64,000 nt of DNA from Actinomycetota bacterium. GTDB lineage: Bacteria; Actinomycetota; UBA4738; JACQTL01. Each line of letters starts with the position of its first letter. The first letter of the stretch is position 1. This document shows, one piece after another, positions 50,403-53,652 of the stretch. The stretch lies in assembly GCA_045805265.1 (NCBI GenBank), contig JBJMLO010000011.1, forward strand, positions 110,148 through 174,147. The letters are read 5' to 3'. The notes below the pieces were generated by a model. The model worked only from the letters and a program-made list of their open reading frames with translations. It ran no database searches and was not told the DNA's origin. A program made the translations under genes and the position numbers.

Positions 50403-50564
50403 GGGAACGGCAACGCTAGCAGGTCGGGATTCCCGCGCCCCGGGGCATGTTCCGAGGCTCGTCGTGAGGGCGTTTCCGCGGCCCGGGACACGAGCCATCC
50501 GGGCGCGGCCCCGACCGCGGCCCTTGCTAGAATGCGCGGCGCGACCGGCCTCCGGGCCGCTCTG

Positions 50565-50635
50565 GCGGATGTGGTTCAATGGCAGAACGCAAGCTTCCCA
50601 AGCTTGAGACGGGGGTTCGATTCCCCTCATCCGCT
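50565..50635 (+). tRNA. tRNA-Gly (anticodon CCC)
   Basis: Cloverleaf read by hand: acceptor GCGGATG/CATCCGC, D-arm GTTC-AATGGCA-GAAC, anticodon arm CAAGC-TTCCCAA-GCTTG (anticodon CCC), T-arm GGGGG-TTCGATT-CCCCT, discriminator U. CCA not encoded. Confidence 0.85.
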
Positions 50636-50761
50636 CCCTCCCCTCACAGGAGTGTTCGCGCGGGGACCGAGCGTTCGAGGCTCGGATGCGACGAGGAGTT
50701 GGGGCAGGACTTCCGTCCGAACCAATGGCATCGCTTCGTCGACGATCGAAACTGACCCAAC

Positions 50762-51589
50762 CTAGCCCCTCGCGTCGCCCGGGCGATCGGTCGTTCCGCC
50801 CAGATACATCGGCGCGGTGGGGCACAGGTCGTTCAGCGGGCAGTCCTCGCAGCGGGGCCGGCCCGGCTTGCAGATCTCGCGACCCAGGCGGATCAGGCCA
50901 ACGTGCATCGAGATCCGCAACCGTGGCGGCACGAGCTTCCGCAGGATCTCGTGCGCGGGGCCGGCGCCCGCGCCCGGCGGGATCCAGCCGAGCCGGCCGG
51001 CCACCCGGTGGACGTGGGTGTCGACCGGCAGGGCCGGCCGCTCCAGCGAGAAGGCCAGCACGCAGGCCGCCGTCTTCGGGCCGACGCCGGGAAGGGATTC
51101 CAGGTAGGCGACCACCTCCTCGTCGGAGGCCTCGCGCATCCACGCCAGGTCCAGCGAGCCGTCACGGTCGCGGATCTCGCGCAGGATCGCGAGGAGCCGT
51201 GGCGCCTTGATCCGGGACAGGCCGCCGGGGCGGATGGCCTGGGCGACGTCCGCGACCTCGGCGTCGGCCAGCGACTCCCACGTCGGGAACCGATCCCGCA
51301 GCGCCGCGAACGCCCGGTCGCGGTTCACGTCGCTGGTGTTCTGCGACAGGACCGTGAGCACCAGCTCTTCGACCGGGTCGCGCTTGACGGGCGGGTCGAG
51401 CGGCCCGAAACGCCGGGCCAGCCTCCGGTGGACCTGCCTGACCACCGCGGCATCGACGGAGGGCGAGCCGGCCACGCCATCGACTGCACGACCGGCGGGA
51501 CGCGCAACGAACCGCGCGGGTCGCGCGGCGGTCCGGCGGGCGGCACGGCGCTTCCCGGGCGGACCGGGCGCCGTCTTCGCGGCGCTCAC
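50762..51589 (-). CDS. nth: endonuclease III (HhH-GPD family DNA glycosylase, 4Fe-4S)
   Basis: HhH-GPD (LPGVGPKTAACVLAF) and C-terminal Cys cluster CKPGRPRCEDCPLNDLC. GTG at 51589 overlaps the dnaB TGA (GTGA); the start is uncertain. Confidence 0.75.
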   Translation of the reverse strand: MSAAKTAPGPPGKRRAARRTAARPARFVARPAGRAVDGVAGSPSVDAAVVRQVHRRLARRFGPLDPPVKRDPVEELVLTVLSQNTSDVNRDRAFAALRDRFPTWESLADAEVADVAQAIRPGGLSRIKAPRLLAILREIRDRDGSLDLAWMREASDEEVVAYLESLPGVGPKTAACVLAFSLERPALPVDTHVHRVAGRLGWIPPGAGAGPAHEILRKLVPPRLRISMHVGLIRLGREICKPGRPRCEDCPLNDLCPTAPMYLGGTTDRPGDARG

Positions 51590-53445
51590 CCCCGGTAGAG
51601 GTTCCGGAACCGGATCAGCTCGTCGGAGAAGGCCAGCTTGATCGTGCCCGTGGGTCCGTTCCGGTGCTTCGCCACGATGAGCTCCGCCTCGCCCTTGGCC
51701 CAGTGTCCATCCTCGTCCTTCTCGCGGTGGATGAACATGACGACGTCGGCGTCCTGCTCCAGCGCGCCGGAGTTGTGGCTGATGATCCCGTTCGACACCC
51801 AGGAGTTCGGTCCGGGAACGGTGAGGTCGTAGACACGCTCCCGCCCGGCCGGCTCCACGGCGATCACGGGGTCCCATCCCAGGTCGGGCCGGTTCTCACC
51901 GAGGCCCCACCCGACCTGGCTATCCAGTCCCCCGGGGGCGAACGACGAGAACCCGGACCTGTGCGCGGCTTGGGCCACGGCCACCGGCAGGGGAAGCGCG
52001 GCGTGGACGCCGACCCGGTCGCCGGCCATCAGGTCCCGGACCCGGATCCATCCGCGGGCCCCATACACCAGGTGGAGGTCGGTCGCCCGGAGGCGCCGGC
52101 CCGATGCCAGGACCACGTCGAAGACCCGCCGGACCCCGACCTCCCAGATGAGCTCGGACCGGGCCGTGACGATCAGCCCCTCCCGGGTGAGGGCGAGCAC
52201 CTCCGGTGCCGTTCCGACGAGCTCCTCGATCGGTGCGACGCCGCCGTCGGCCAGCGCGACCGTCGTGTCGCCGGTCACGCACTCCCGGAGGTTGGACAGC
52301 TGGGGCTTGGCCCCTTCCCGGCGCTCGGGGTCCCGGTTCAGCTGGGAGAGGGCGACGACCGGGATCTGGAGCTCCTTGGCCAGGAGCTTCAGGGAACGGC
52401 TGATCTCGGCGATCTCCTGCTGGCGGTTGTCCACCCGGCGGTGGTGGGACATCAGCTGGAGGTAGTCGACGACGATCAGCGCCAGGTCCTCCCGCGACCG
52501 GAGCCGCCGAGCCTTGGCCCGGATGTCGAGGATCGTGACCTCCCCGGAGTCCACGATGTACAGGGGCGCGTCGTGCAGCGTGTCGGCGGCGTCGGCGAAC
52601 GCGCTGAAGTCGGCGCCGCCGATCTTCCCCGCCCGGACCTTGGCCATCGGGACCCCGGCCTCGCTGCACAGCAGCCGCATCCCCAGCTCCCACCGCGACA
52701 TCTCGAGCGAGAACAGGGCAACGGTCTTGCGCTCGGTGACTGCCACGTTGCGGGCGATGTTGACCGCGAGCGCCGACTTCCCGGCGCCGGGACGCGCGGC
52801 GATGATGATGAAGTTGCTGTCCTGCATCCCCGACAGCAGCTCGTCGATGTCCCGGAAACCAGTGGCGAGCCCGGCCAGCGCGGACTCCCGCTGCTGGATG
52901 TGTTCGATCTCGTCGATGGCCGAGGAGATCACCGGCTGCAGCGCGACCAGCGAGGTCTCGTCCTCGTGGCGGGAGGCCGCGTAGATGCGGCCTTCGGCGA
53001 GCTCCGCAGCCTCCCGCGGGTTCTCCGGCACGGCGTACGCGATCTCCATGACGTCGGCCGCCGCCGAGATGAGCCGGCGGAGCAGCGCGAGCTCCGACAC
53101 GATCTTGGCGTAGTGCACGGCGCTCGCCGGGGACGGCACCGCCTCCACCAGCTCCTGGATCCGGAGCGCCCCGCCGACCTCCACCAGCTGCCCGCGGCGC
53201 TTCAGCTCCTCGACCGCGGTGATGGCGTCGACGGGCTCGCCGCGCGCGTACAGCTGCAGGAGCGCCTCGAAGATCGTGGCGTTCGCCCGGCGGTAGAACT
53301 CGTCGGCCTTGACCACGTCGATGACGTTGGCGATGGCGTCCGCGGAGAGCATCATGGCGCCGAGCACGGATTCCTCGGCCTCCAGGTTCTGCGGGGGGAT
53401 CCGTTCCGGTCGGACCCGCCTGACCTCGTCCGTCGCCTGCGCCAT
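51586..53445 (-). CDS. dnaB: replicative DNA helicase DnaB, interrupted in-frame by a mini-intein
   Basis: N-terminal domain (IPPQNLEAEESVLGAMML), Walker A (ARPGAGKSALAVN), Walker B (LIVVDYLQLM), C-terminal SGALEQDADVVMFIHRE. Total 619 aa against about 450 aa for intein-free DnaB. Confidence 0.9.
   Translation of the reverse strand: MAQATDEVRRVRPERIPPQNLEAEESVLGAMMLSADAIANVIDVVKADEFYRRANATIFEALLQLYARGEPVDAITAVEELKRRGQLVEVGGALRIQELVEAVPSPASAVHYAKIVSELALLRRLISAAADVMEIAYAVPENPREAAELAEGRIYAASRHEDETSLVALQPVISSAIDEIEHIQQRESALAGLATGFRDIDELLSGMQDSNFIIIAARPGAGKSALAVNIARNVAVTERKTVALFSLEMSRWELGMRLLCSEAGVPMAKVRAGKIGGADFSAFADAADTLHDAPLYIVDSGEVTILDIRAKARRLRSREDLALIVVDYLQLMSHHRRVDNRQQEIAEISRSLKLLAKELQIPVVALSQLNRDPERREGAKPQLSNLRECVTGDTTVALADGGVAPIEELVGTAPEVLALTREGLIVTARSELIWEVGVRRVFDVVLASGRRLRATDLHLVYGARGWIRVRDLMAGDRVGVHAALPLPVAVAQAAHRSGFSSFAPGGLDSQVGWGLGENRPDLGWDPVIAVEPAGRERVYDLTVPGPNSWVSNGIISHNSGALEQDADVVMFIHREKDEDGHWAKGEAELIVAKHRNGPTGTIKLAFSDELIRFRNLYRG
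51772..52281 (-). other. mini-intein (170 aa, Hint domain only, no homing endonuclease) inside dnaB
   Basis: Starts with Cys directly after conserved extein LSNLRE (CVTGDTTVALADGG, block A). TxxH block B (ATDLH). Ends ...VYDLTVPGPNSWVSNGIISHN followed by +1 Ser of the conserved SGALEQDAD helicase motif (blocks F/G). Codons 389-558 of the dnaB ORF. Confidence 0.8.
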
Positions 53446-53652
53446 CTCAGCTCCCCCCCGTGGAATCCCGCGACGCTAGTCCCTCGCGTCGGGAAGGCGG
53501 AAGGGGAAAGGACGGAGGAAATCGTTGGGGAAAACGCGGTGCGCTGGTCCGGGCGTCGCCGAGCTCGGGATTTCGTGTCGTTCCCGCTCCGACCAGCGCT
53601 CCCCCGGTGTGGACAACCATGTGGAGAAATGTAGAGGGGACCACCGACACGA

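Follow-up and report, generated by a model that had tools for sequence, protein, structure and literature searches.

The dnaB gene and its insertion

The DNA analyzed here is a 64-kb stretch of contig JBJMLO010000011.1 (positions 110,148 to 174,147) from an Actinomycetota bacterium, referred to below as the window. Its minus strand carries dnaB, the gene for the replicative helicase, and the coding sequence of this gene is interrupted in frame by 170 residues that have the features of a mini-intein. The 1,860-nt open reading frame (ORF) is open across all 619 residues. The product scores 475 bits against TIGR00665, the NCBIfam equivalog for DnaB (cut-off 385), and DnaB structures in the PDB match it in sequence searches with E=1e-101. 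The Pfam N-terminal (PF00772) and C-terminal (PF03796) domains of DnaB are split around residues 389-558. The positions of the gene, its parts and its neighbors are listed in Table 1.

A first-pass annotation of this DNA had described a 619-residue DnaB with a 170-residue in-frame insertion at 51772-52281, starting with a Cys after LSNLRE and ending in GIISHN before a Ser. Translation of the ORF reproduces the lengths and coordinates exactly, and locates the gene on the minus strand, which the annotation had left unstated. The translated junctions are as it proposed and read PQLSNLRE-CVTGDTTV... and ...SNGIISHN-SGALEQDADVVMF. In-silico excision of the 170 residues leaves a protein of 449 residues.

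Table 1. Features of the dnaB locus, in window coordinates.
Feature	Position	Strand	Basis or remark
dnaB helicase precursor, 619 residues + stop	51586..53445	minus	ORF; PF00772 + PF03796; TIGR00665
N-extein, DnaB residues 1-388, ends ...KPQLSNLRE	52282..53445	minus	aligns with 2r6a residues 6-382
Class 1 mini-intein, 170 residues, DnaB residues 389-558	51772..52281	minus	PF14890, TIGR01445, TIGR01443; AlphaFold2 HINT fold; Foldseek
N-terminal splicing region, intein residues 1-93; block A Cys1, block B Thr67-Asp-Leu-His70	52003..52281	minus	invariant columns; pLDDT 91-98
Linker, intein residues ~94-131, where relatives have a ~250-residue LAGLIDADG homing endonuclease	51889..52002	minus	alignment with P0012/P0013
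C-terminal splicing region, intein residues 132-170; block F V-Y-D152-L-T-V-P-G-P, block G I-I-S-H169-N170	51772..51888	minus	TIGR01443
C-extein, DnaB residues 559-619 + stop, starts with Ser559 (+1) of the H4 motif	51586..51771	minus	aligns with 2r6a residues 383-443
rpsF, ssb, rpsR, rplI	57259 down to 55707	minus	upstream of dnaB
Hydrophobic ORF, 658 residues	53653-55629	plus	between rplI and dnaB
Overlap of dnaB stop and HhH-GPD gene start (GTGA, 4 nt)	51586-51589	minus	TGA stop, GTG start
tRNA-Gly(CCC)	50564-50638	plus	Rfam
trpD-like gene	49281..~50400	minus	

The insertion was aligned with natural mini-inteins, giving an alignment of 11 sequences (A1). Residues C1, T67, H70, W136, D137, D152, H169 and N170 of the intein are invariant in A1. 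Cys389 of the precursor is intein Cys1, the block A nucleophile, and Ser559, the +1 residue, adjoins Asn558 (intein Asn170). Block A, block B (TDLH) and the terminal HN, which the first-pass annotation had recognized, all belong to these invariant positions. Judged from the alignment, the complete residue set of a class 1 intein is present. Cys1 is the sole cysteine of the intein.

The two splicing regions are joined by ~35 residues that are predicted to be disordered. A Pfam search of the intein at E<=0.1 gave no match to the homing endonuclease PF14528 or to any other nuclease, in agreement with the earlier view that the insertion is too short to hold one. Endonuclease remnants were also sought in the linker, which has no Pfam match and does not align convincingly with the nuclease of two full-length relatives, P0012 and P0013. 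At the present divergence from these relatives, the endpoints of the nuclease deletion are unmappable.

The insertion is recognized as an intein by sequence and fold

Curated intein profiles match the insertion above their cut-offs. The excised 170 residues score 49.4 bits against PF14890 (Intein_splicing; gathering cut-off 35.8, E=5.7e-13), and in the full-length protein this match covers DnaB residues 396-558. Scores for TIGR01445 (intein_Nterm) and TIGR01443 (intein_Cterm) are 36.3 and 32.7, with cut-offs of 24.5 and 15.6, respectively. Among PDB sequences, the 170 residues match the DnaB inteins of Npu (4o1r, 4.9e-15) and Ssp (6frg/6frh, 1.3e-12; 1mi8, 1e-11), followed by splicing domains of the Mtu RecA intein.

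An AlphaFold2 model was built on A1. It has an all-beta HINT architecture, with a mean predicted local distance difference test (pLDDT) score of 84 and a predicted TM score (pTM) of 0.76. The pLDDT is above 90 for intein residues 1-93 and 134-170. It falls below 50 for residues 103-130, which are unstructured. A Foldseek search of the PDB with this model returned 66 matches at E<=1e-3, and the best 50 are inteins, save for related hedgehog autoprocessing and bacterial intein-like (BIL) Hint domains further down. The Ssp DnaB, Npu DnaB and Mtu RecA inteins lead the list with target-normalized TM scores of 0.81-0.90, and the E values for the two DnaB inteins are ~1e-13 to 1e-12. The Hint-domain similarity on which the first-pass annotation had staked its proposal is thus found both in the profiles and in the predicted fold.

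Structures and sequences of intein-free DnaBs define the insertion precisely. In the alignment with Geobacillus DnaB (2r6a), residues 13-388 of the window protein correspond to residues 6-382, and residues 558/559-618 to residues 382/383-443, with no residue of the Geobacillus protein missing. Because 2r6a runs on between E382 and S383, the 170 residues interrupt the host chain cleanly and are no variable linker, the explanation that the first-pass annotation had named as a possible refutation. Similarly, 39 of the 120 best full-length homologues are intein-less and read ...LRE-SGxxEQD... across the site. Five intein-less orthologues are exactly 449 residues long and share 84-87.5% identity with the product of in-silico splicing. 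Excision does restore a 449-residue DnaB, as had been claimed, with the length of its intein-less orthologues and a gapless alignment to Geobacillus DnaB. The spliced DnaB of this organism would be a protein of 449 residues, and the 619-residue ORF would encode its precursor.

A second intein at the P-loop site of dnaB was not found, the P-loop (AARPGAGKS) being intact and uninterrupted. An HMM (hidden Markov model) made from A1 matched dnaB alone among 408 six-frame segments, and no further intein was found in the window. The GC content is 72.9% for the intein, 70.6% for dnaB and 71.6% for the window. A recent transfer suggested by composition was rejected, as the GC content of the intein is close to that of the gene and the window. 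Long antisense and out-of-frame ORFs over dnaB, such as one of 656 residues on the plus strand (51664..53634), are expected artefacts of ~72% GC and were not considered genes. No structured RNA was found under the intein on either strand; the tRNA-Gly listed in Table 1, placed by Rfam at 50565-50635, was the only Rfam match in the window.

The intein occupies the RE/SG site of motif H4

The insertion point is RE/SG, in which the slash marks the splice junction. Glu388 is at -1, and the C-extein starts with SGALEQDAD. In the Ssp and Npu DnaB inteins and in Msm DnaBi2, the site is RESG/S, with Gly at -1, two residues downstream of the site in the window. For Ssp DnaB and DnaBi2, this location follows from the Gly replaced at -1 in published mutants. 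The title of PDB entry 6frg is 'G-1F mutant of Ssp DnaB mini-intein', and Kelley et al. (2018; PMC6195587) described a 'G-1V' mutant of Msm DnaBi2, an intein at 'insertion site a in motif H4'. The first-pass annotation had placed the intein at the 'classic DnaB insertion site'. This is correct for the motif, the same H4/DNA-binding motif being interrupted, but not for the exact point, which lies two residues upstream of RESG/S. With Glu at -1, the window intein falls outside the 'site a' allelic family (Ssp, Npu, Rma, Mtu and Msm DnaBi2, all RESG/S). Its closest relatives are found at the same point as the intein itself, which places it in an RE/SG-site allelic family.

According to Novikova et al. 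(2016; PMC4760082), DnaB sites a and c are two residues apart. Since site-a inteins have Gly at -1 and a nucleophile is needed at +1, only the Ser of SG fits. RE/SG is therefore probably 'DnaB site c' in the Perler/InBase naming of that survey, the letter being deduced from this spacing and from the Gly at -1.

HMMER, run exhaustively over 1.84 billion representatives, gave 2,331 matches to the intein at E<=1e-3. Among the best 148 of these, ~100 show an RE/C and/or HN/SGxxEQD junction and are the closest, with 40-58% identity. Another 26-28 of the best 148 show RESG/C...HN/SxEQD and are more distant, with 31-41% identity. Junctions and identities indicate that the RE/SG and RESG/S families are related yet distinct, and that the window intein belongs to the former. 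Class 3 inteins are characterized by the lack of an N-terminal nucleophile, a Trp-Cys-Thr triplet with the block F Cys, and a P-loop location. The window intein has Cys1, no other Cys, and a location in H4.

Relatives at the same site

Among the close homologues, all 82 intein-bearing DnaBs have the RE/SG junction. Their inteins measure 153-441 residues, with a strong mode at 420-424 residues, where LAGLIDADG_3 (PF14528) is present. When one genome of each GTDB species was scanned with sequence patterns, more than 545 loci encoding a relative were found, of which 80 were retained. The RE/SG junction is found in 80 of these 80 loci, in a list biased towards RE/SG by scan patterns that were derived from this family itself, and most of the loci encode mini-inteins of 133-232 residues. 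The hosts are Myxococcota, Deinococcota, Methylomirabilota/Rokubacteria, Cyanobacteria, Gamma- and Betaproteobacteria, Acidobacteriota, Gemmatimonadota, Bacteroidota and Actinomycetota. Despite the bias of the scan, this distribution shows that a DnaB mini-intein at the RE/SG site is an ordinary element. DnaB is the commonest bacterial intein host in the 2016 survey, which gives 317 inteins in DnaB, 202 of them in Actinobacteria (PMC4760082).

At four loci of Lamprocystis/Thiodictyon (Chromatiaceae; L036, L037, L042 and L043), the junction pattern gives 626-665 residues from RD/C or RE/C to HN/SG. The tblastn match to the window intein spans just ~160-175 residues at these loci. The pattern was probably mis-anchored there, but a second intein may lie upstream in these dnaB genes.

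The nearest named relatives are metagenome-assembled genomes (MAGs) labelled 'Actinomycetota bacterium', from soil metagenomes. An exact look-up of the 619-residue protein yielded no identical entry. The nearest copy (P0009, in MAG GCA_009772025.1) is 93% identical overall, with 98.7% identity in the exteins and 79% in the intein. P0009, P0010 and P0011 have extein identities of 98.7%, 96.4% and 88.9% and carry mini-inteins of 171, 177 and 173 residues, respectively (locus L001, 4001-5863). The site is empty and DnaB is 449 residues long in P0015, P0014, P0016, P0020 and P0019, with extein identities of 87.5-84% (L006, 186-1535). P0013 and P0012, with extein identities of 85.5% and 84.6%, carry a 420-residue intein with the nuclease (PF14528) at the same site (L004, 3398-6007). 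An empty site, a 420-residue LAGLIDADG intein and mini-inteins of 170-177 residues all coexist in this one clade of soil metagenomes, within 84-99% extein identity.

Loss of the nuclease

Compared with the inteins of P0012 and P0013, the window intein keeps an N-terminal region of ~95 residues and a C-terminal region of ~40 residues, and the ~250-residue nuclease is replaced by an unrelated linker of ~35 residues. The ancestor would have been a LAGLIDADG intein of ~420 residues at the same site, which has since lost its nuclease. In a neighbor-joining tree of the splice domains, calculated without bootstrap, the four mini-inteins of the clade are sister to P0012 and P0013, mirroring the relationship of the hosts. 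The tree fits a single nuclease deletion that was followed by vertical descent.

Mini-inteins are found at at least seven other places in this tree. P0083 (210 residues) and P0081 (420 residues), as well as P0025 (240 residues) and P0027 (420 residues), have splice domains that are 91-92% identical. The members of each pair differ by a deletion of 180-210 residues in the nuclease domain, and these look like very recent, independent partial deletions. Comparisons of this kind show nuclease loss in the RE/SG family to be apparently recurrent and sometimes recent.

Proposed splicing mechanism

Splicing chemistry has been firmly worked out in class 1 inteins, Ssp DnaB and Msm DnaBi2 among them, and from this analogy we infer both splicing of the window intein and its individual steps. 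The 619-residue precursor would be made whole and fold, and the HINT domain would draw the two junctions together. An N-S acyl shift of Cys389 on the carbonyl of Glu388 would then take place, assisted by Thr67 and His70 of block B. Ser559 would attack the resulting thioester and take over the N-extein, which would give a branched ester. Cyclization of Asn558, aided by His557 (intein His169) and Asp540 (Asp152 of block F), would free the intein. A final O-N shift would join Glu388 to Ser559 in ...NLRE-SGALEQDAD.... The predicted product is a 449-residue DnaB in which the H4 motif NLRESGALEQDAD is restored and which would be able to assemble and bind DNA.

Because its nuclease has been lost, the intein should be unable to home and should pass vertically. 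Its persistence can be explained by its location, since only a perfectly precise deletion is expected to be tolerated in an essential, invariant motif. An imprecise loss, or a failure of splicing, would inactivate the essential dnaB.

Comparison with characterized DnaB inteins

Other RE/SG-site DnaB inteins have the same junctions as the window intein (DLRE-CVTGDT ... SHN-SGxxEQDAD), belong to class 1 and are 40-60% identical to it in the splice domain. Unlike the nuclease-bearing members, the window copy has no nuclease, measures 170 residues and has a fast-evolving linker of its own.

The Ssp and Npu DnaB mini-inteins (1mi8, 6frg/6frh and 4o1r) share the host protein, the H4 motif, class 1 and the arrangement Cys1...His-Asn followed by Ser. 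Their HINT folds superimpose on that of the window intein with TM scores of 0.81-0.89, and Npu DnaB is likewise a natural mini-intein. In contrast, they are cyanobacterial, are inserted at RESG/S and have a His in block F, and their identity to the window intein in the Foldseek structural alignments is ~23-27%. The natural Ssp DnaB intein is full-length, and its mini version is a product of engineering.

Msm DnaBi2 and the Mtu DnaB intein are also found in H4, the DNA-binding loop, of an actinobacterial DnaB. Both are of class 1, with Cys1 and Ser+1 as in the window intein. Unlike it, they carry a homing endonuclease (~416-425 residues) and have Gly at -1 (site a); the window intein is nuclease-less and has Glu. 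These two inteins splice fast and constitutively (Kelley et al., 2018; PMC6195587). Msm DnaBi1, Mle DnaB and MchDnaB-1 (6bs8, 6rix) are mini-inteins with a HINT fold in actinobacterial DnaB, and their Foldseek TM scores are weaker at ~0.6-0.8. They differ from the window intein in their location at the P-loop (site b) and in belonging to class 3, with no N-terminal nucleophile and with a Cys in block F.

Selection on the intein and alternative explanations

We compared the window dnaB with the P0009 gene in L001, using codon alignment and the Nei-Gojobori method. The ratio of non-synonymous to synonymous rates (dN/dS) is 0.045 for the exteins, 0.23 for the N-terminal splicing region, 0.24 for the C-terminal splicing region and 0.70 for the linker, values that come from one pairwise comparison and, within the intein, from short segments of 38-93 codons. 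The N-extein alone has a ratio of 0.056, and the C-extein has no non-synonymous differences from L001. The linker also varies in length, with 170, 171, 173 and 177 residues in the orthologous inteins. These values indicate that splicing is under purifying selection, though weaker than that on the helicase, and that the linker drifts almost freely. Actual splicing of the window intein gains indirect support from this selection on the splicing domains and from the essential role of DnaB.

Several observations speak against an active class 1 intein in the window. The intein diverges much faster than its host, with the 79% and 98.7% identities to P0009 given above; this is compatible with a partly relaxed constraint. 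The dN/dS estimates carry the limits of a single comparison of short segments. Block F has an Asn (GPNSW) at a position where the Ssp and Npu DnaB inteins have a His (GPHNF and GLHNF), and the assistance to Asn cyclization may differ in detail. The same position varies among A, E, N and S across the RE/SG family. This His position is not universally conserved among inteins, and we therefore regard the Asn as a minor difference and not a defect. The fast divergence, the almost neutral linker and the missing His would all suit a splicing-dead relic, in which mature DnaB retains the 170 residues as an extra domain, or dnaB is a pseudogene in decay whose task falls to another helicase. However, every essential class 1 residue is present and invariant, the splicing domains show purifying selection with a dN/dS of ~0.23, and the frame is open over 619 residues with the exteins at 0.045. 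In addition, the H4 motif RE/SGxxEQDAD is split by the insertion, so an unspliced protein should be inactive, and the gene lies in a canonical housekeeping locus. We consider a relic very unlikely. An intein that splices conditionally and senses the environment, regulating how much active helicase is available in the way put forward for M. smegmatis DnaBi1, has precedents among DnaB inteins (PMC6195587, PMC7360933), and mini-inteins do persist at RE/SG across many phyla though unable to home. Yet the lone Cys1 leaves no partner for an intramolecular disulfide trap of the DnaBi1 type, and a redox trap of this kind was rejected. The mycobacterial class 1 DnaBi2 at the H4 site spliced fast and was unresponsive to stressors (PMC6195587), close relatives fare well with an empty site, and the sequence indicates no sensor. 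Environmental control of the window intein thus seems extremely unlikely. The broader idea that RE/SG mini-inteins have been kept across phyla as a post-translational gate on helicase supply, responding to ssDNA, temperature, metals or redox, and are not purely stuck parasites, appears improbable.

The low-complexity look of the central 35 residues, and nothing else, would favor reading the insertion as a variable DnaB loop or linker specific to the lineage, or as a BIL domain. Both are refuted by the curated intein HMMs that score above their cut-offs, by the predicted HINT fold, and by close orthologues and crystal structures that are contiguous across the junction. The invariant motif, the Ser+1 nucleophile and the terminal His-Asn are also unlike BIL domains, and the chance that the insertion is no intein is practically nil. 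We therefore hold with high confidence that the insertion is a class 1 mini-intein in the H4 (DNA-binding loop) motif of DnaB from an uncultured, high-GC member of the Actinomycetota, that it excises itself, and that it is a vertically inherited, nuclease-deleted descendant of a LAGLIDADG intein of ~420 residues.

Genomic neighborhood of dnaB

The genes rpsF, ssb, rpsR and rplI lie upstream of dnaB on the same strand. Downstream are an HhH-GPD (endonuclease III-like) gene, the tRNA-Gly(CCC) gene and a trpD-like gene. The same gene order is found on the contigs with P0009 and P0012. Because the rpsF-ssb-rpsR-rplI ... dnaB-nth context is conserved, the window dnaB is identified as the housekeeping helicase.

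A hydrophobic ORF of 658 residues is located between rplI and dnaB on the opposite strand. It has no Pfam match at E<=1e-5, and its syntenic counterparts in L001 and L004 carry the label PF19830 (DUF6311). In this lineage, the usual adjacency of rplI and dnaB is broken by a conserved membrane protein of unknown function.

The TGA stop codon of dnaB overlaps the GTG start codon of the HhH-GPD gene. Gene calls on the orthologous contigs show this overlap as well (5860 versus 5863 in L001, and 6004 versus 6007 in L004). It suggests that dnaB may be translationally coupled with a base-excision repair glycosylase. The HhH-GPD protein has an N-terminal extension of ~75 residues, rich in Arg, Ala and Pro, before the HhH-GPD domain. 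The tRNA-Gly(CCC) gene, between the nth-like and trpD-like genes, is the sole tRNA gene in the window.

Discussion

The window intein is a new, uncharacterized member of the well-known DnaB intein family, and nothing about it is surprising. Its recognition has a direct consequence for annotation: the mature DnaB should be recorded with 449 residues, not 619. Natural mini-inteins are occasionally useful in protein engineering, and the window intein lies between Glu at -1 and Ser at +1, a context unlike that of the Ssp and Npu DnaB inteins in wide use. At 170 residues and with Glu at -1, it may prove a compact module that splices fast, tolerates exteins differently from Ssp and Npu DnaB, and is a useful tool.

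For the biology of the family, the locus and its close relatives represent a natural snapshot of the intein 'homing cycle' in one narrow actinobacterial clade. The coexisting stages would make this clade a neat natural system for dating the loss of the nuclease.

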